DNA of 64,000 nucleotides from Escherichia coli (GTDB lineage Bacteria; Pseudomonadota; Gammaproteobacteria; Enterobacterales; Enterobacteriaceae). The notes beneath the pieces are model-generated. The model saw only the letters and a program-made list of their open reading frames with translations. It had not been told where the DNA came from and did no database searches. Shown here piece after piece: positions 4,322 through 62,392 of the stretch. A program made the position numbers and the translations under genes. Each line of letters begins with the position of its first letter. Positions within the stretch are counted from its first letter, which is position 1. Location of the stretch: assembly GCF_044324785.1 (NCBI RefSeq), contig NZ_CP172127.1. One strand, written 5' to 3'.

Positions 4322-5761
4322 TCAGGCGTTACCGGTAAAAAGTTTCCCATCTCGCACCAGTTCACGCGGGTAGCTGTTTTTCAGTCGCGAACCAATTCGT
4401 TTGGCTAAACCAATCGGCTGATGCTGGAAAGTAACTAATACATCATCCGCTACTGGCGCGGCTTGCGGGTAAACATCGCGCCCGCGATACCACTCTTCCG
4501 CTTCCTGCGGTGTCAGTTCAAAAGCGTTCACATTGTCGGGGGAGGCAAGGGCAATAACCGCTTCATGCTGCCAGCGATAACCTTTATTATGCGTTTCGGC
4601 AAGTTTAATCCCCAACCGAGAAAATCGGACTTTACCGATCAGGGCTTCAATGCCTACCGGGAACAACCACAGTTCTTTGTCGCGTTGCCAGAGTCGCAGG
4701 TTTCCATCCCAGTTTAAGCCAACACTTGCAGCCGCCTGACGAATTTGTCCGGCTTCGCGATCTTTTACCGGGCTAAACGGAAAATTGCCCACTTTGTATT
4801 TTGGGGCGGGTAACGCAGGAATCGCCTTGGTTTTACGCAGACGAGCAACGAAGAAGCCTTCGCAGTCGTAAATTTGTGGGAAAACATGCAAAAAACCTTC
4901 TTCGGTCAACGCCTTGTTTGCACCAGGGAAGAGATCGCCAAGCGGTAAAAACTCTACTGCGTCGGGGTAAGTCTCTTTCAGCCACAGGCAAACAGCTTCG
5001 TTTTCTTCCTTGTTTAAGGTACAGGTTGAGTAGACCAGCGTACCGCCAGTACGTAAAGCGTGAAAGGCACTGTCGATCAGTTCTCGCTGGGTCGCCGCAA
5101 TTTCCTGATTGCTTTCCGGTGACCAGTTTTTCAGTGCGTCGGGATCTTTGCGCACTACGCCTTCGCCAGAGCAGGGGGCGTCCAGCAGAATGGCATCGAA
5201 CATTTCTGGTAACGCCGCACCAAAGACGCGACCATCAAAATGAGTCAGAGAGACGTTACGGATACCGCAGCGACTGATATTGGCATGTAACACTTTTACC
5301 CGGCTGGCAGAAAACTCATTGGCAAGGATCGCCCCTTCGTTATTCATCCTCGCGGCAATTTGCGTCGTTTTTGAGCCTGGCGCGGCAGCGACATCCATCA
5401 CCCGCTGTGGTGCATTACCGTCAGCAAACAAGGCGGCGACGGGCAACATTGAACTGGCTTCCTGAATATAAAACAGGCCACTTAAATGCTCGGCGGTACT
5501 ACCCAATGGCAAGGCATCTTCATCGTCGCGTTCAATCCAGAAACCTTCTTCACACCACGGAATTGGCGTAAGCGTCCAGCCATAAGGGGCGGTTAATTGC
5601 AGGAAATCAGCAACGGAGATTTTCAGCGTATTAACGCGAATACTGCGGCGCAACGGGCGCTGACAGGCGGCAAGAAAATCATCAAATGAGAGCGTCGAAG
5701 GCATCGCTTCGCGCATTTGTGTCAGAAAGGCGTCCGGGAAATAAACGGTGTGTTGGGCCAC
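4322..5761 (-). CDS. rsmF: 16S rRNA m5C1407 methyltransferase RsmF
   Basis: 481-aa track ORF; annotated product is 479 aa, so probable GTG start two codons in; SAM-methyltransferase motifs ([20 protein letters not shown]) visible. Confidence 0.9.
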
Positions 5762-17723: not shown

Positions 17724-18392
17724 TCCTTCCTCAATCTTGAGTAACCCCGTCGTTGAAGGGTTACTCAATTCATCCTGATTATACGCACTGCCATGGTGCA
17801 ACTGCTTCAAATTAAAACTCTGGTCTGACTTCAAATAATTATCATATTATTTATTTGCGTAACGGGATATCAGAAAAAGATATTTAGCCCATTAATTTAT
17901 TAGGATGTTTACATCGGATTTGTGATTAAGTGTGGTATTATTTATTAGCGAAACGTTTCTCTCTTGATTTTTTTGCGCATTCATCAATTTTTCTTATTTT
18001 AAATTTACAATACCTTTGGCGATTGACTTCTCTTTGGGGTGATTGATAGCCGTTAACTGACTGTTTTATGAGAAAAAGTGATATAACTTTTTATTCATTG
18101 CATAGCAGAAAATGTGATATTGCACGCACTATGTAATAACTTCTCCCATTGGCCTGGAACAACTGAACTTATTGAACTATGTTAGAAAATACGTCAGTTT
18201 AAGTATCTGCCTGAACTGGCAAGGTTAAGCACAATGATATATCGGCGCGTATTCCGTTGCATAAGTGTGCAAAAAAAGTGGAAGACGTATCGAGATTTGT
18301 GCGTCTGATCGAGACATGTTTAAAAATGGCTTGCCATAATTAACGTTGTATGTGATAACAGATTTCGGGTTAAACGAGGTACAGTTCTGTTT

Positions 18393-18536
18393 ATGTGTGG
18401 CATTTTCAGTAAAGAAGTCCTGAGTAAACACGTTGACGTTGAATACCGCTTCTCTGCCGAGCCTTATATTGGTGCCTCATGCAGTAATGTGTCAGTTTTA
18501 TCTATGTTATGCCTGCGGGCGAAGAAAACAATCTAA
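18393..18536 (+). CDS. yobF: Small protein YobF (47 aa), co-transcribed with cspC
   Basis: Hand translation [47 protein letters not shown]; stop 12 nt before the cspC start. Confidence 0.8.
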
Positions 18537-18548
18537 GGAATTTTTCAA

Positions 18549-18758
18549 ATGGCAAAGATTAAAGGTCAGGTTAAGTGGTTCAACGAGTCTAAAGGTTTTG
18601 GCTTCATTACTCCGGCTGATGGCAGCAAAGACGTGTTCGTACACTTCTCTGCTATCCAGGGTAATGGTTTCAAAACTCTGGCTGAAGGTCAGAACGTTGA
18701 GTTCGAAATTCAGGACGGTCAGAAAGGTCCGGCAGCTGTTAACGTAACAGCTATCTGA
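18549..18758 (+). CDS. cspC: Cold-shock-family protein CspC
   Basis: 69-aa [72 protein letters not shown] with RNP1/RNP2 motifs. Confidence 0.95.
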
Positions 18759-18803
18759 TCGAATCCACTGATCTGAAGTGTGAATACGCTTCAATCTCGC
18801 TAT

Positions 18804-18830
18804 AAAGCCTCGTCGAATGCGAGGCTTTTT
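18804..18830 (+). terminator. Intrinsic terminator after cspC
   Basis: aaagcctcg-tcgaatg-cgaggctttttt hairpin plus T-run. Confidence 0.8.
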
Positions 18831-18923
18831 ACTTTGCTTTCTCTTCGCTCCAGTCGTTCGGATATTTGCCCGCCGCGTGATTCGCGTTACACTTGCGGCC
18901 TTTAGTATCCTGCCGGAGTTGTC

Positions 18924-36236: not shown

Positions 36237-37922
36237 TTGAAGAAGGTTTGGCTTAACCGTTATCCCGCGGACGTTCCGACGGAGATCAACCCTGACCGTT
36301 ATCAATCTCTGGTAGATATGTTTGAGCAGTCGGTCGCGCGCTACGCCGATCAACCCGCGTTTGTGAATATGGGGGAGGTGATGACCTTCCGCAAACTGGA
36401 AGAACGCAGTCGCGCGTTTGCCGCTTATTTGCAACAAGGGTTGGGACTGAAGAAAGGCGATCGCGTTGCGTTGATGATGCCTAATTTATTGCAATATCCG
36501 GTGGCGCTGTTTGGCATTTTGCGTGCCGGGATGATTGTCGTAAACGTTAACCCGTTGTATACCCCGCGTGAACTTGAGCATCAGCTTAACGATAGCGGCG
36601 CATCGGCGATTGTTATCGTGTCTAACTTTGCCCACACTCTGGAAAAAGTGGTTGATAAAACCGCCGTTCAGCACGTAATTCTGACCCGTATGGGCGATCA
36701 GCTATCTACGGCAAAAGGCACGGTAGTCAATTTCGTTGTTAAATACATCAAGCGTCTGGTGCCGAAATACCATCTGCCAGATGCCATTTCATTTCGTAGC
36801 GCCCTGCACAACGGCTACCGGATGCAGTACGTCAAACCCGAACTGGTGCCGGAAGATTTAGCTTTCCTGCAATACACCGGCGGTACCACTGGTGTGGCGA
36901 AAGGCGCGATGCTGACTCACCGCAATATGCTGGCGAACCTGGAACAGGTTAACGCGACCTATGGTCCGCTGTTGCATCCGGGCAAAGAGCTGGTGGTGAC
37001 GGCGCTGCCGCTGTATCACATTTTTGCACTGACCATTAACTGCCTGCTGTTTATCGAACTGGGTGGGCAGAACCTGCTTATCACTAATCCGCGCGATATT
37101 CCAGGGTTGGTAAAAGAGTTAGCGAAATATCCGTTTACCGCTATCACTGGCGTTAACACCTTGTTCAATGCGTTGCTGAACAATAAAGAGTTCCAGCAGC
37201 TGGATTTCTCCAGTCTGCATCTTTCCGCAGGCGGAGGGATGCCTGTTCAGCAAGTGGTGGCAGAACGTTGGGTGAAACTGACTGGACAGTATCTGCTGGA
37301 AGGTTATGGCCTGACCGAGTGTGCGCCGCTGGTCAGCGTTAACCCGTATGATATTGATTATCATAGTGGTAGCATCGGTTTGCCGGTGCCATCGACGGAA
37401 GCCAAACTGGTGGATGACGACGACAACGAAGTACCACCGGGTCAACCGGGTGAGCTTTGTGTCAAAGGACCGCAGGTGATGCTGGGTTACTGGCAGCGTC
37501 CGGATGCTACCGATGAAATCATCAAAAATGGCTGGTTACACACCGGCGACATCGCGGTGATGGATGAAGAAGGATTCCTGCGCATTGTCGATCGTAAAAA
37601 AGACATGATTCTGGTTTCCGGTTTTAACGTCTATCCCAACGAGATTGAAGATGTCGTCATGCAGCATCCTGGCGTACAGGAAGTCGCGGCTGTTGGCGTA
37701 CCTTCCGGCTCCAGTGGTGAAGCGGTGAAAATCTTCGTAGTGAAAAAAGATCCATCGCTTACCGAAGAGTCACTGGTGACTTTTTGCCGCCGTCAGCTCA
37801 CGGGCTACAAAGTACCGAAGCTGGTGGAGTTTCGTGATGAGTTACCGAAATCTAACGTCGGAAAAATTTTGCGACGAGAATTACGTGACGAAGCGCGCGG
37901 CAAAGTGGACAATAAAGCCTGA
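36237..37922 (+). CDS. fadD: Long-chain fatty acid-CoA ligase FadD (TTG start)
   Basis: Track ORF 36171..37922 trimmed to TTG-initiated (M)[25 protein letters not shown]... (561 aa); AMP-binding motif [11 protein letters not shown] present. Confidence 0.9.
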
Positions 37923-37940
37923 GCGTTAAGTCAGTCGTCA

Positions 37941-37967
37941 GACGCCGGTTAATCCGGCGTTTTTTTT
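37941..37967 (+). terminator. Intrinsic terminator after fadD
   Basis: acgccgg-ttaat-ccggcgt hairpin followed by TTTTTTT. Confidence 0.85.
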
Positions 37968-37991: not shown

Positions 37992-39119
37992 TTGAATTAC
38001 CAAATGATTACCACGGACGATGCGCTGGCTTCTTTGTGTGAAGCCGTCCGTGCCTTTCCGGCGATAGCCCTGGATACTGAATTTGTTCGTACGCGCACCT
38101 ATTACCCGCAACTGGGTCTAATTCAACTTTTTGATGGTGAGCATCTGGCGCTAATTGATCCTCTCGGGATCTCCGACTGGTCACCGCTGAAAGCGATCCT
38201 GCGCGATCCGTCCATCACAAAATTTCTCCATGCGGGCAGTGAAGATCTGGAAGTGTTCCTCAATGTCTTTGGCGAATTACCACAACCCTTGATTGACACG
38301 CAAATCCTTGCTGCCTTCTGCGGACGCCCGATGTCATGGGGTTTCGCTTCCATGGTGGAAGAGTATTCCGGCGTTACGCTGGACAAGAGTGAATCGCGCA
38401 CCGACTGGCTGGCCAGACCGCTGACCGAACGTCAGTGTGAATACGCAGCGGCGGATGTCTGGTATCTGTTACCGATCACCGCAAAGCTTATGGTAGAAAC
38501 GGAGGCCTCCGGCTGGCTACCTGCGGCGCTGGATGAATGCCGCCTGATGCAAATGCGTCGTCAGGAAGTCGTTGCACCGGAAGATGCCTGGCGTGATATT
38601 ACCAATGCCTGGCAGTTACGCACACGCCAACTGGCCTGTCTGCAACTGTTAGCCGACTGGCGACTGCGCAAGGCGCGGGAGCGCGATCTGGCGGTGAACT
38701 TTGTCGTGCGTGAAGAGCATTTGTGGTCGGTAGCGCGTTATATGCCGGGAAGTTTAGGCGAACTGGACAGCCTGGGCTTATCCGGTAGCGAAATCCGCTT
38801 TCACGGTAAAACGCTGCTGGCGCTGGTGGAAAAAGCGCAGACATTGCCGGAAGAGGCCTTACCGCAGCCGATGCTTAACCTGATGGACATGCCGGGTTAT
38901 CGTAAAGCGTTTAAAGCGATTAAGTCGTTGATTACTGACGTGAGCGAAACGCACAAGATCAGCGCCGAATTGCTGGCATCGCGTCGGCAAATCAACCAAC
39001 TGCTGAACTGGCACTGGAAACTGAAACCGCAGAACAATTTGCCGGAGCTGATTTCCGGCTGGCGTGGTGAGCTGATGGCGGAAGCATTACACAATTTATT
39101 GCAGGAATATCCGCAGTAA
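37992..39119 (+). CDS. rnd: Ribonuclease D
   Basis: 375-aa ORF with DEDDy 3'-5' exonuclease and HRDC regions; recognised as Rnd. Confidence 0.9.
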   Translation: MNYQMITTDDALASLCEAVRAFPAIALDTEFVRTRTYYPQLGLIQLFDGEHLALIDPLGISDWSPLKAILRDPSITKFLHAGSEDLEVFLNVFGELPQPLIDTQILAAFCGRPMSWGFASMVEEYSGVTLDKSESRTDWLARPLTERQCEYAAADVWYLLPITAKLMVETEASGWLPAALDECRLMQMRRQEVVAPEDAWRDITNAWQLRTRQLACLQLLADWRLRKARERDLAVNFVVREEHLWSVARYMPGSLGELDSLGLSGSEIRFHGKTLLALVEKAQTLPEEALPQPMLNLMDMPGYRKAFKAIKSLITDVSETHKISAELLASRRQINQLLNWHWKLKPQNNLPELISGWRGELMAEALHNLLQEYPQ

Positions 39120-39125
39120 AATCTT

Positions 39126-39168
39126 CCGAAGCCGGACTGGGCGCGCTCAGCGCCACATCCGGCTTCGG
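39126..39168. repeat. REP-like palindromic element between convergent rnd and yeaX
   Basis: ccgaagccgg ... ccggcttcgg 10-bp inverted repeat enclosing a GC-rich core; contains the CCGGATG-type REP signature (catccggc). Confidence 0.45.
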
Positions 39169-39172
39169 CAAA

Positions 39173-40138
39173 CTACAAATCCAACACCAGGCGTTTACCC
39201 TTCGCGCGCGAACAACAGATCAACATACTTTGCTGGCTGGCACGCTCTTCATCGCTAAAATACTGATCCCGATGGTCAGCTTCACCTTCCAGTATTGCCG
39301 TTTCGCAGGTTCCGCATACCCCTTCACGACATAAACATTCCACTTTCGCTGCTTTATTATTTTCAATAACCTGCAAAATAGTCATCTCTTCCGGCACCAC
39401 ATACTCTTTACCGGAACGGGCAAGCACCAGGGTAAATGCATCGCCGGTTTTGTCTTCAATCGCAAATTGTTCAAAGTGCAGCGTATCGGCGGCGATGTCC
39501 AGACGCGCAGCTTCACTTCTTACCGCCTCATTTAGCGCTTCGGGGCCACAGGTATAAACATGTGTGCCAGGTTCGATATCCGCCAATAATCGCGCTAATT
39601 CCAGTCGTGTTCCGGTTGATGAATGATGCAAATGGACTTTCTCAGCCTGCGGATGCTGGACTAGCTCATCACGAAATGCGCAACTTTCTGGATTTCGTGA
39701 GCAGTAATGTAACTGCCAGTCGACGTCGCTGTATTGCATCTCTGCCAGGTGCGACAGGAAAGGGGTGATACCAATGCCTCCCGCGATAAACAGATGCTTT
39801 CTGGCCGAGGGAATTAGCGCAAACAGGTTATTAGGCGTTGAAATCGTTAACCGATCGCCCACTTTTACCTGCTGATGCAAAAAGCGGGAACCGCCGCGCG
39901 AGTTTTCCTCCAGCCGAACGGCAATCTGATAACAAGAGGTGTCATGCGGCGAACTCAGTAGTGAATACGCATTGCTGTACTCGTTATCACCATCGCTCAT
40001 CTGCACAATGACGTGACTTCCTCCGGTAAACGCAGGTAATGGTTTGCCATCGGTTGCCACCAGCGTGAAGCGTTTCACCTGTTCGGTAAGCGGTTCAATT
40101 TGGCTCACCTGTACTTCAAACATTTGATAGTCTGACAT
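39173..40138 (-). CDS. yeaX: Carnitine monooxygenase reductase subunit YeaX (CntB); FNR-like reductase with C-terminal 2Fe-2S ferredoxin
   Basis: 321-aa ORF with C-terminal Cys cluster (CREGVCGTCE) typical of plant-type ferredoxin domains. Confidence 0.85.
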   Translation of the reverse strand: MSDYQMFEVQVSQIEPLTEQVKRFTLVATDGKPLPAFTGGSHVIVQMSDGDNEYSNAYSLLSSPHDTSCYQIAVRLEENSRGGSRFLHQQVKVGDRLTISTPNNLFALIPSARKHLFIAGGIGITPFLSHLAEMQYSDVDWQLHYCSRNPESCAFRDELVQHPQAEKVHLHHSSTGTRLELARLLADIEPGTHVYTCGPEALNEAVRSEAARLDIAADTLHFEQFAIEDKTGDAFTLVLARSGKEYVVPEEMTILQVIENNKAAKVECLCREGVCGTCETAILEGEADHRDQYFSDEERASQQSMLICCSRAKGKRLVLDL

Positions 40139-48675: not shown

Positions 48676-48930
48676 ATGAAAATTATCAGTTTTGTTCTGC
48701 CTTGCTTGCTGGTTCTGGCTGGTTGTTCAACCTCTTCTCAGCCAGAAGCACCTAAACCGCCGCAGATTGGTATGGCAAATCCGGCGTCGGTCTATTGCCA
48801 GCAGAAGGGCGGGACGCTCATTCCAGTGCAGACAGCGCAAGGGGTCAGCAACAATTGCAAATTACCGGGCGGTGAAACGATTGATGAATGGGCATTGTGG
48901 CGACGGGACCATCCGGCTGGTGAAAAATAA
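48676..48930 (+). CDS. yoaF: DUF333 lipoprotein YoaF
   Basis: 84-aa ORF with lipobox (LAGC) MKIISFVLPCLLVLAGCSTSSQPEAPKPPQIGMANPASVYCQQKGG... Confidence 0.8.
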   Translation: MKIISFVLPCLLVLAGCSTSSQPEAPKPPQIGMANPASVYCQQKGGTLIPVQTAQGVSNNCKLPGGETIDEWALWRRDHPAGEK

Positions 48931-48951
48931 CCGCCGGATGCTGTACTAAAA

Positions 48952-49299
48952 TCACAAGCTACGTAGCCAGTCGGCCAGCACCAGCGCATGGTTCTGCGTG
49001 GTGTTTTTTGCTGAGTAGAGCAGGGTCAGCGGCTGTTTTTTGGCGATGTCCGCCAGCCGCTTTCCTTCTTGCTCGTGTTGCGCCAGTTCTGCAAGATATT
49101 GCTCGCGAAAGGTTGCAAAATCGACGACTTCGCCGTGAAAGGCTTTGCGCAGTTCCGTTGACGGCGTGATTTCTTTATCCCACTCATCAAGGGCTAAATC
49201 GGTTTTTTTGATACCACGCGGCCAGAGGCGGTCGACCAGTACGCGATAACCATCGCTCTGTTCTGCCGGATCATAAACGCGTTTGCACTGAATATTCAT
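48952..49299 (-). CDS. yeaO: DUF488 protein YeaO
   Basis: Track ORF 48952..49320 trimmed to MNIQCKRVYDPAEQSDGYRVLVDRLWPRGIKK... (115 aa). Confidence 0.8.
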   Translation of the reverse strand: MNIQCKRVYDPAEQSDGYRVLVDRLWPRGIKKTDLALDEWDKEITPSTELRKAFHGEVVDFATFREQYLAELAQHEQEGKRLADIAKKQPLTLLYSAKNTTQNHALVLADWLRSL

Positions 49300-49353
49300 C
49301 GTGTTTGTTCTCCCTTCCACGCATGATTGGTCACGTCACTATAGCACCGGATA

Positions 49354-60482: not shown

Positions 60483-60571
60483 TAATGCATCTTTCCAGGG
60501 CATTTTGTGCATAAAAACAGGGCGTAATGCCCTGTTTTGCATTACGGTGGTGCAATACCTGGGAGGAAACA

Positions 60572-61426
60572 ATGCAACAAAAAATGATTCAATTTAGTGG
60601 CGATCTCTCACTGCCAGCCATAGGGCAGGGAACATGGTATATGGGCGAAGATGCCAGTCAGCGTAAAACAGAAGTTGCTGCACTACGCGCGGGCATTGAG
60701 CTCGGTTTAACCCTCATTGATACCGCCGAAATGTATGCTGATGGCGGTGCCGAAATGGTGGTTGGGGAAGCATTAACCGGCCTGCGTGAGAACGTCTTTC
60801 TCGTCTCTAAAGTCTATCCGTGGAATGCTGGCGGGCAAAAAGCGATAAATGCATGCGAAGCCAGTTTACGCCGTCTCAATACTGATTATCTCGATCTCTA
60901 CTTATTACACTGGTCTGGCAGTTTCGCTTTTGAAGAGACTGTCGCAGCGATGGAAAAATTGATTGCCCAGGGAAAAATCCGCCGCTGGGGCGTTTCTAAC
61001 CTTGATTATGCCGATATGCAGGAACTCTGGCAGCTGCCGGGGGGAAATCAGTGTGCCACTAATCAGGTGCTTTACCATCTCGGTTCACGAGGGATTGAGT
61101 ACGATCTACTCCCCTGGTGCCAGCAACAGAAGATACCGGTGATGGCTTACAGTCCGTTAGCTCAGGCCGGGCGGTTGCGCAATGGGCTGCTAAAAAACGC
61201 AGTAGTCAACGAAATTGCACATGCTCACAATATCAGCGCGGCACAAGTATTGTTAGCGTGGGTAATCAGCCATCAGGGGGTGATGGCGATTCCAAAAGCG
61301 GCCACGATAGCCCATGTCCAACAAAATGCGGCTGTGCTTGAGGTTGAACTTTCGTCAGCGGAATTAGCTATGCTGGATAAGGCATATCCGGCACCAAAAG
61401 GTAAAACTGCGCTGGATATGGTGTGA
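60572..61426 (+). CDS. yeaE: Aldo-keto reductase YeaE
   Basis: Track ORF 60527..61426 trimmed to MQQKMIQFSGDLSLPAIGQGTWYMGED... (284 aa). Confidence 0.85.
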   Translation: MQQKMIQFSGDLSLPAIGQGTWYMGEDASQRKTEVAALRAGIELGLTLIDTAEMYADGGAEMVVGEALTGLRENVFLVSKVYPWNAGGQKAINACEASLRRLNTDYLDLYLLHWSGSFAFEETVAAMEKLIAQGKIRRWGVSNLDYADMQELWQLPGGNQCATNQVLYHLGSRGIEYDLLPWCQQQKIPVMAYSPLAQAGRLRNGLLKNAVVNEIAHAHNISAAQVLLAWVISHQGVMAIPKAATIAHVQQNAAVLEVELSSAELAMLDKAYPAPKGKTALDMV

Positions 61427-61468
61427 TGTTGATACGTGCCGGATGCATCGCACCCGGCACACAACATT
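61426..61468. repeat. REP-like palindrome between convergent yeaE and yeaD
   Basis: gatgttg-atac-gtgccggatgcatcgcacccggcac-acaacatt: nested inverted repeats with GCCGGATG core. Confidence 0.45.
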
Positions 61469-61476
61469 AACGCAAA

Positions 61477-62361
61477 TTAACGTTTGGCAACGCGAATGGA
61501 TTGCGCCAGATGTGCAGGTTTTTCTTTGGTGACTTTTTGCGTTTCTGAAGCGTAAGCCGTTTCTACACAAACAAAGGTCTTGTAGCCATCGTCCGGCATG
61601 TCGCCCATGCTAACTGAAAGCGCCGGTCCCGGATTCCAGCCTACAACGTTCAGATGATGCTGGTGACCTACGGCGATAATACGATTCAGCGCTTCATCAT
61701 TAATCACGCTGCAATCTTGCGGATTCAGATACACGCGATCGGTACGGTCAGGGAAGGTCTGAATACCGTCGGTCAGTACATCTTCTTTCGCGTCATTCAC
61801 TTTATCAATGAAGCGATCGCCCAGCCCACTGACGCTTACCTTAGCGATATCACCCACGTTAAAGTAGGTATGCAGGGCAGAGGTGGTTTCAAATTCGCCA
61901 TGTGATTCAAGATCGATTTCACAGGTTTTACCCACGCGGAAATGCGCTAACAGCGTAAAGTCGTGCGGCCAGAATTTTTTCGTCTCTTCGCTTTGCGTCA
62001 ATTCAAAAGTCAGCGCTACGCCATCAGCATCTTCATGATGTGATTTCAGCGTCCACGGCAGGTTGCGGGCAAAACCGTGCGCAGGCAGGCCTTGTTGTGC
62101 AGCCGGACCAAACCACGGCCAGCAAACCGGTACGCCACCGCGAATAGCGACGCCATTTTTGAACGGTGTGTTATTGCTCAACCACAGAACTTCTTCTTCA
62201 CCCGCAGGTTTCCATGAGAGAAGGTGTGCGCCCTGTAATGCAAAAGAGGCTTTTACCTGGGGATGATCGACCACAATGAGGTCCAGTTCATCCAGTTTAC
62301 GACGGGAGAGGACAGGGGAGATTTGTTCGATGACCGGAAGGGCAAAAATTTTCTTAATCAT
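61477..62361 (-). CDS. yeaD: Putative glucose-6-phosphate 1-epimerase YeaD (aldose-1-epimerase family)
   Basis: Track ORF 61477..62382 trimmed to MIKKIFALPVIEQISPVLSRRKLDELD... (294 aa). Confidence 0.85.
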   Translation of the reverse strand: MIKKIFALPVIEQISPVLSRRKLDELDLIVVDHPQVKASFALQGAHLLSWKPAGEEEVLWLSNNTPFKNGVAIRGGVPVCWPWFGPAAQQGLPAHGFARNLPWTLKSHHEDADGVALTFELTQSEETKKFWPHDFTLLAHFRVGKTCEIDLESHGEFETTSALHTYFNVGDIAKVSVSGLGDRFIDKVNDAKEDVLTDGIQTFPDRTDRVYLNPQDCSVINDEALNRIIAVGHQHHLNVVGWNPGPALSVSMGDMPDDGYKTFVCVETAYASETQKVTKEKPAHLAQSIRVAKR

Positions 62362-62392
62362 GACGCAGTCCTTTAACTTCATTTTATCAGGT

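Follow-up and report, generated by a model that had tools for sequence, protein, structure and literature searches.

The palindromes at the convergent yeaE/yeaD and rnd/yeaX junctions of E. coli (hereafter junctions 1 and 2) are not members of the REP family but locus-specific, essentially single-copy hairpins. Each is probably a GC-rich stem-loop, lodged in the 3' UTR spacer that two facing genes share, that sets and protects mRNA 3' ends and does not act as a functional REP. Both are ordinary U-less 3'-end stem-loops of an already known class. The analysis concerned a 64-kb window (the whole stretch of DNA considered here, 64,000 nt), which over the yeaE/yeaD region is 99.9% identical to E. 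coli N3 and ~96.6% identical to K-12 derivatives, and which runs in the orientation opposite to that of the K-12 map.

Stem-loops in the two convergent spacers

Junction 1 is formed by the yeaE ORF (methylglyoxal reductase, 60527-61426, plus strand) and the yeaD ORF (hexose-6-phosphate mutarotase, 61477-62382, minus strand), whose stop codons are separated by a spacer of 50 nt; yeaD lies behind gapA on the same strand. The core stem-loop spans 61436-61460 and consists of the arms GTGCCGGATGC (61436-61446) and GCACCCGGCAC (61450-61460), each 11 nt long with one mismatch between them, closed by the 3-nt loop atc. The mismatch is A.C in yeaE-sense RNA and becomes a G.U pair in yeaD-sense RNA. The yeaE stop codon stands 9 nt ahead of the core stem and the yeaD stop codon (61477-61479) 16 nt from it. 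The core is flanked by ATAC and ACAA, and an outer TGTTG at 61427-61431 pairs with CAACA at 61462-61466 to give an extended hairpin at 61427-61466. The K-12 allele (hairpin at 1864781-1864745) is 3 nt shorter (ATAC replaced by T), and this indel in the outer stem turns the whole into an 18-bp near-perfect stem that begins right after the yeaE stop codon.

At junction 2 the rnd ORF (RNase D, 37992-39119, plus strand) faces the yeaX ORF (carnitine monooxygenase reductase, 39173-40138, minus strand) across a 53-nt spacer. The stem-loop is a 43-nt palindrome at 39126-39168 (K-12 position 1886815-1886857), with arms at 39126-39144 and 39150-39168, and reads CCGAAGCCGGA-ctg-GGCGC-gctca-GCGCC-aca-TCCGGCTTCGG. 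A 3x3 internal loop (CTG/ACA) separates the outer stem of 11 bp from the inner stem of 5 bp, and 5 nt form the terminal loop. It is flanked by TTCCGAA and CAAA, and the stem lies 6 nt past the stop codon of rnd and 4 nt from that of yeaX (39173-39175).

RNA folding compared with dinucleotide shuffles gave z-scores of -4.5 (plus strand) and -4.0 (minus strand) for junction 1 and of -7.1 and -6.6 for junction 2, where the MFE of the 53-nt spacer is -34.4 kcal/mol (plus) and -35.5 kcal/mol (minus); at the two junctions only 0-1 of 200 shuffles equalled the native fold. A preliminary description of this DNA had reported GC-rich inverted repeats at both convergent junctions, and these are indeed present at the coordinates it gave, between the stop codons and folding beyond what shuffled sequence achieves. 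It had further held that they are not simple terminators, which the sequence past the stems bears out: the tails are ACAACATT and GTATCAAC at junction 1 and CAAACTAC and AAGATTTTAC at junction 2, no T-run follows either hairpin on either strand, and a terminator scan calls neither. Intrinsic (Rho-independent) termination, for which a GC-rich hairpin is followed by a U-rich tract of 7-8 nt, was considered for each hairpin and rejected. The two E. coli hairpins share with classical bidirectional intrinsic terminators their position and type of stem, but have neither an A-tract nor a T-tract.

The hairpins are retained in 5,423 to 5,425 of 5,426 complete E. coli genomes. A 1,101-nt query for junction 1 matched 5,423 of the 5,426 genomes at 95-99% identity, as a single piece of 1,098-1,101 nt among the matches listed. 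At junction 2 colinearity extends over 601 nt in 4,375 genomes, and the remainder are shortened by deletion, none being expanded; it is lost ~25 nt past the hairpin in ~1,050 genomes, always with the hairpin kept together with rnd. In the one deletion example that was inspected, the region from yeaX to dmlA is mostly gone. Apart from this deletion, with its edge ~25 nt past the rnd hairpin, the only variants at the junctions are small hairpin alleles. The long junction 2 allele is that of the window, K-12 and O157. A short allele, shorter by 7 nt and a perfect palindrome, is carried by ~1,350 genomes (the 80-90% identity band), and its centre occurs in both orientations, CTGGGCGCGCTCAG and CTGAGCGCGCCCAG, as though the middle of the palindrome had been inverted. 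Each of the three junction 2 alleles folds into a very stable stem. The core of junction 1 is identical in seven Escherichia sequences, with GCCGGATGCA..GCA(C/T)CCGGCAC as its conserved form, while the flanks vary.

It is scarcely credible that such elements are chance or neutral palindromes without function. Some genera have no yeaD/yeaE spacer whatever, and the core pairs of junction 1 are invariant across Escherichia and hence offer no covariation evidence for the structure, two observations that a neutral palindrome would accommodate. However, fold z-scores of -4 to -7, exact placement between stop codons, conservation in >5,420 E. coli genomes and between Escherichia species despite varying flanks, the stable stem common to the junction 2 alleles and the strong mRNA 3' end mapped at junction 1 (described below) all speak against it.

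Tests of REP family membership

In the RefSeq record of K-12 (NC_000913.3) IS elements are annotated, but REPs are not entered as repeat_region features (even the known pair at 5565-5669 is missing), so REP membership was tested directly. For copy number, queries of 50 nt (junction 1) and 56 nt (junction 2) were searched with blastn at E <= 10 against the 5,426 complete genomes. The median number of places per genome was 3 for junction 1 and 1 for junction 2, whereas a 50-nt canonical y REP taken from the K-12 yaaX/yaaA spacer as a control found at least 40 places in every genome under the same settings. The one secondary place of junction 1 that was inspected is a hairpin at the convergent higA/fadH junction, GCCGGATGCgtcGCATCCGGC. 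When the consensus sequences of y, z1 and z2 REPs were searched with blastn-short, 200 kb of K-12 yielded ~30 REPs of full length and the 64-kb window none, only a chance 11-mer being matched there.

A REP covariance model built from 24 K-12 REPs was run along the whole window, all filters being disabled. Junction 1 reached 7.6 bits (E 4.7) and junction 2 12.1 bits (E 0.19), the latter through a local alignment to model positions 5-36 from which the GTAG is omitted. These are scores in the range of noise: the top score of the window, 14.4 bits, belongs to a stretch within the yeaE CDS, while an independent control region of strain N3, 50 kb long, gave four REPs at 25-43 bits and noise of at most 9.8 bits. 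The short junction 2 allele gave no match to the model at the hairpin at E <= 10. Neither the consensus search nor the covariance model found a canonical REP anywhere in the window, and Rfam at gathering thresholds returned nothing at junction 1 or 2. The preliminary description, which had read the palindromes as REP-like, had proposed a formal search against REP consensus sets and had named a lack of similarity to REP families as what would tell against this reading; with no consensus match by blastn-short and weak covariance scores, this is essentially what was obtained. It had also suggested that strains be compared for variation in REP number, and in the ~5,400 E. coli genomes we saw no such variation at either junction.

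The hairpins themselves were also inspected for REP features. GTAG or CTAC adjacent to the hairpin is absent on both strands at both junctions, whereas 22 of the 24 K-12 REPs used for training carry GTAG. This tetranucleotide is conserved in >90% of members in most GTAG repeat families (PMC3733652), and binding and cleavage by TnpA_REP need both GTAG and the stem mismatch (PMC3333891). As to the two-base stem mismatch of REPs (AA/GC), junction 1 has a single A.C elsewhere in the stem, the long junction 2 allele has a 3x3 loop and the short allele, a perfect palindrome, has no internal loop at all. The conserved asymmetric interior of y-type REPs, GATAAG/CGCATC, is missing. With respect to BIMEs, each junction holds one palindrome with no partner iREP and no linker, and its copy number is constant in E. 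coli.

We therefore consider it highly improbable that the hairpins are bona fide y, z1 or z2 REPs, that is, substrates of the RAYT TnpA_REP that could expand into BIMEs. There are genuine points of resemblance. The GCCGGATG/CATCCGGC outer stem (GCCGGAT...ATCCGGC) is common to these hairpins and y-type REPs (the GTAG-3 family); junction 2 has a REP-like architecture, in which a GCCGGA/TCCGGC outer stem is followed by an internal loop and then by an inner stem rich in GC; both hairpins are extragenic and sit at gene ends, within spacers that separate convergent stop codons; and stabilisation of upstream mRNA, proposed here for the hairpins, is a property of REPs. Against these stand the number of places per genome, the missing GTAG, the noise-level covariance scores, the empty consensus search, the lack of an iREP partner and the perfect palindrome of the short junction 2 allele.

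The core motif on which the preliminary description had leaned as typical of REPs, GCCGGATG, is present at both junctions, at 61438-61445 (+) in junction 1 and at 39156-39163 (-) in junction 2, but it does not diagnose a REP. The window contains nine copies of it against 2.45 expected, and it was rejected as REP evidence because five of the nine lie in sequence that reads as coding. Taken alone, GCCGGATG is a poor guide to REPs; coding sequence and non-REP hairpins contain it too. A search of the window for GTAGGCCNGATAAG with 2 mismatches allowed gave 2 matches against 0.89 expected, which is the level of chance.

For annotation, both junctions should be recorded as U-less 3'-end stem-loops and not as REPs. 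As they are not REPs, there is no expectation of RAYT mobility, BIME expansion, IS targeting or use in rep-PCR typing.

mRNA 3' ends and Rho regions at the junctions

The expression data available for these loci are all from K-12, which differs from the window by the 3-nt outer-stem indel at junction 1, and we infer that they carry over to the window strain. Term-seq of K-12 lists two 'primary' 3' ends for yeaE, one at 1864740(-) that scores 126,600 and one at 1864735(-) that scores 150,248 (PMC7815308, supplementary file 1). These fall 5 and 10 nt beyond the K-12 stem, in UUAAC/GUAAA with no U-tract, and their equivalents in the window, transferred from K-12 by alignment, lie at 61471-61476 on the plus strand. 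The stabilisation of upstream mRNA that the preliminary description had attributed to the palindromes is consistent with such strong ends a few nucleotides past the hairpin. For yeaD, rnd and yeaX, the same dataset lists no Term-seq 3' end at the hairpins (PMC7815308), and the TERMITe supplements contain no entries for yeaE, yeaD, rnd or yeaX.

Two BCM-sensitive Rho regions are reported here (PMC7815308). One, at 1865455(+) (Rho score 4.7), lies antisense to yeaE; the other, at 1886672(-) (Rho score 5.0), is antisense to yeaX and ~143 nt past the rnd hairpin. The same table, in which each 800-nt window is represented only by its best-scoring position, has no entry downstream of yeaE on the yeaE strand (PMC7815308). 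Since Rho regions lie past both hairpins, RNA polymerase travelling in the yeaD or rnd direction appears to run through the hairpin and to be stopped by Rho further on. Part of the signal past the hairpins could stem from antisense promoters instead of read-through.

Rho-dependent transcripts of E. coli end right after stable stem-loops that lack a U-tract (Dar and Sorek, PMC6061677). Such stem-loops guard against PNPase and RNase II and have rut sites just downstream, and annotated REPs make up only 24% of them (PMC6061677). A stem without a T-run, yeaE ends just past that stem and Rho regions further on fit this known class. Like its members, which are mostly non-REP, the hairpins described here are GC-rich stem-loops just past a stop codon with neither U-tract nor A-tract, with a 3' end a few nucleotides past the stem (seen for yeaE) and with Rho regions downstream (seen on the yeaD and rnd strands). 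They differ in that a single hairpin here serves two convergent genes.

We propose that a transcript of either strand would form a stable RNA hairpin without a U-tract, that RNA polymerase would mostly read through this hairpin, and that termination would occur further on, antisense within the facing gene and at least partly via Rho. PNPase and RNase II, which are 3'-to-5' exonucleases, would then trim the transcript to a few nucleotides past the stem, and the hairpin would thereby fix and shield the steady-state mRNA 3' end. Exonuclease trimming of this kind presumably takes place at both the yeaE/yeaD and the rnd/yeaX loci, and the yeaD, rnd and yeaX transcripts would be served in the same way as that of yeaE; at junction 2 the 3'-end role is put forward by analogy.

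Convergent genes also permit a different mechanism, in which the hairpins are collision-type bidirectional terminators: the hairpin pauses polymerases coming from both sides, and their head-on and trailing collisions stop transcription where the two genes meet, without Rho or a U-tract. Stem-loops between convergent genes that do not resemble intrinsic terminators form the class that SEnd-seq and single-molecule experiments have brought to light (bioRxiv 10.1101/2022.10.23.513370), and a lone, non-intrinsic-looking hairpin where convergent units overlap is what our junctions have in common with the bidirectional terminators of Ju et al. 2019 and Wang et al. 2022 (preprint). In favour of such a mechanism, yeaE has strong and precise 3' ends, an own-strand Rho region downstream of yeaE is absent from the list, and the position of yeaD behind gapA on the same strand means that converging traffic could be heavy. 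However, the BCM-sensitive regions past the hairpins on the yeaD- and rnd-sense strands indicate that transcription in those directions is not halted at the hairpin, and at each junction speak against efficient blocking of transcription from at least one side. In addition, rnd and yeaX have no Term-seq 3' end at the hairpin, and the model applies best to highly expressed pairs (bioRxiv 10.1101/2022.10.23.513370). We regard the collision mechanism as an unlikely principal function of the hairpins, but it is a live alternative or complement to 3'-end protection.

The closeness of the stems to stop codons raises the question of a mainly translational effect, whereby a hairpin within ~15 nt of the stop codon would hinder the terminating ribosome and cut upstream output via trans-translation. 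The stems start 9 nt from the stop codon of yeaE, 6 nt from that of rnd and 4 nt from that of yeaX, and in K-12 the extended stem adjoins the yeaE stop codon directly. Liang, Rudd and Deutscher reportedly found in 2015 that REPs near stop codons lower the output of the upstream gene through trans-translation. The yeaD stop codon, however, is 16 nt away from the core stem, and an effect on translation would add to the protection of the 3' end and not replace it. As the main role of the hairpins we find it very doubtful.

The spacers in other genera and a possible REP ancestry

A YeaD-anchored scan gave 80 Enterobacteriaceae loci, and what occupies the yeaD/yeaE spacer differs greatly between lineages. 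Canonical REPs, scoring 25-45 bits, occupy this spacer in Citrobacter, Salmonella arizonae, the Klebsiella oxytoca group, Pseudocitrobacter and a Raoultella MAG. REP-bearing genera usually have one or two at the junction, and C. portucalensis has ~14 in a spacer of 654 nt. Variation in REP number at yeaD/yeaE, absent within E. coli, is thus found across genera. Kosakonia, Atlantibacter and others carry CCCTCTCCC/GGGAGAGGG hairpins instead, and K. pneumoniae has a classical bidirectional terminator composed of an A-tract, a hairpin and a T-tract. In two cryptic-clade Escherichia the hairpin is CAAGGCCGGAT-6 nt-ATCCGGCA, which scores 18.4 bits and has the orientation of the Citrobacter REP nearest yeaD. 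That many other genera fill the same spacer with different hairpins suggests that a stable stem is favoured there and not a particular sequence. In Buttiauxella, Pluralibacter gergoviae and one Enterobacter sp. (L090), the spacer is 0-1 nt long or the stop codons overlap, and there is no hairpin, so the element is dispensable in some lineages.

REPs at orthologous junctions, together with the 18-bit hairpins of the cryptic clade, make it plausible that junction 1 originated from a decayed REP. Tentatively, and from comparison of sequences, the hairpin at yeaE/yeaD may be the domesticated relic of an ancestral REP or BIME, which in Escherichia would have lost the GTAG and the interior, and with them its mobility, and kept the GCCGGAT/ATCCGGC outer stem as a protector of the 3' end; we hold this to be somewhat short of an even chance. 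Homology of the spacer flanks between Escherichia and Citrobacter, compared by eye, is too weak to settle ancestry. On such a history the cryptic-clade Escherichia hairpin would preserve the relic intermediate. The GCCGGATGC-N3-GCATCCGGC mini-hairpins at yeaE/yeaD and higA/fadH, together with a looser GCCGGATG-type stem at yoaF/yeaO, could form a small class of fossil REPs. The term 'REP-like', as used in the preliminary description, is therefore wrong as a statement of family membership, and possibly apt as one of ancestry for the yeaD/yeaE hairpin only. Were this derivation true, one and the same junction would show the full series from an active BIME array through a lone REP and a perfected palindrome to a short hairpin, and selfish palindromes would have been retained as ordinary mRNA-end structures.

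The spacer downstream of rnd has a different composition in other genera. No REP was found there among the four species sampled; classical bidirectional terminators are present in Salmonella and C. freundii, and C. amalonaticus has a different GCCGGATG hairpin.

Sequence around the yeaE/yeaD hairpin

The highest score given anywhere in the window by the REP covariance model, built from 24 K-12 REPs, was 14.4 bits (E 0.036), within the yeaE coding sequence at CTATGCTGGATAAGGCATATCCGGCA (61368-61393, + strand); K-12 shows the same match. Within the coding sequence, ATCCGGCAC (61386-61394) is a perfect complement of GTGCCGGAT (61436-61444) in the hairpin of the convergent yeaE/yeaD junction, and an alternative pairing is therefore on offer for this hairpin. 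A terminator-like site in the yeaE sense (+ strand), comprising TTGCGCCAGATGTGCAG and then GTTTTTCTTT, lies at 61501-61517, just inside the yeaD coding region at its 3' end. This site has a weak stem of 6 pairs (3 GC), and chance alone would be expected to yield 0.4 sites of this kind in the region. The 50-nt junction query matches approximately two additional places per genome, one of which is a near-twin of the hairpin, GCCGGATGCgtcGCATCCGGC, at the convergent higA/fadH junction of E. coli CNR20180903 (locus L012, 405-425).

The yeaD/yeaE spacer in other species

The yeaD/yeaE spacer of Citrobacter portucalensis A60 (locus L038, 2398-3051) is 654 nt long and is a BIME array, made up of approximately 14 alternating REPs, most of which score 20 to 45 bits by the E. 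coli REP model. Compared with the 50-nt, single-hairpin junction of E. coli, this is an extreme expansion in copy number. In many genera outside Escherichia, a different hairpin, CCCTCTCC(N3-5)GGAGAGGG (loci L037, L042, L044, L054, L058-L060, L062, L074, L078, L083 and L085), recurs in this spacer; it may itself be a member of a repeat family. For Escherichia albertii NBRC 107761 (locus L017), no yeaE homologue was found in the 1.5 kb downstream of yeaD, and yeaD is followed by a classical terminator, AAAACAGGGCGTGACGCCCTGTTTTTT.

Allelic variation at the rnd/yeaX junction

Approximately one-quarter of E. coli genomes carry a perfectly palindromic allele of the rnd/yeaX hairpin (39126-39168) that is 7 nt shorter. 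The center of this short allele is found both ways round, as CTGGGCGCGCTCAG versus CTGAGCGCGCCCAG (loci L004 and L005, 601-649), a pattern suggestive of template switching or of flipping of the palindrome. Roughly 25 nt past the hairpin (window about 39191-39196), colinearity is lost in ∼1,050 of 5,425 E. coli genomes. In strain FDAARGOS_1304 (L004, 650-1016) the yeaX-yeaW-yeaV-dmlA block is mostly missing, and leftover fragments of tartrate dehydrogenase and of a LysR regulator precede leuE.

A third hairpin and RNA families in the window

A further convergent junction carries a third hairpin of the GCCGGATG type, CATCCGGCtGGTgaaaaataACCgCCGGATG, which is absent from the preliminary description; it is located at 48910-48940, with a minimum free energy of -21.2 kcal/mol on the + strand and -18.8 kcal/mol on the - strand. 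Its loop holds the stop codon of an 84-aa lipoprotein-like ORF (48676-48930, + strand), which we take to be yoaF, and a 122-aa ORF (48952-49320, - strand), presumably yeaO, lies in convergent orientation 21 nt away. Rfam matches at the gathering score identified SraC/RyeA and, antisense to it, SdsR/RyeB (2740-2884), the cspA thermoregulator (18373-18833), and the sRNA sroD just upstream of rnd (37881-37966).
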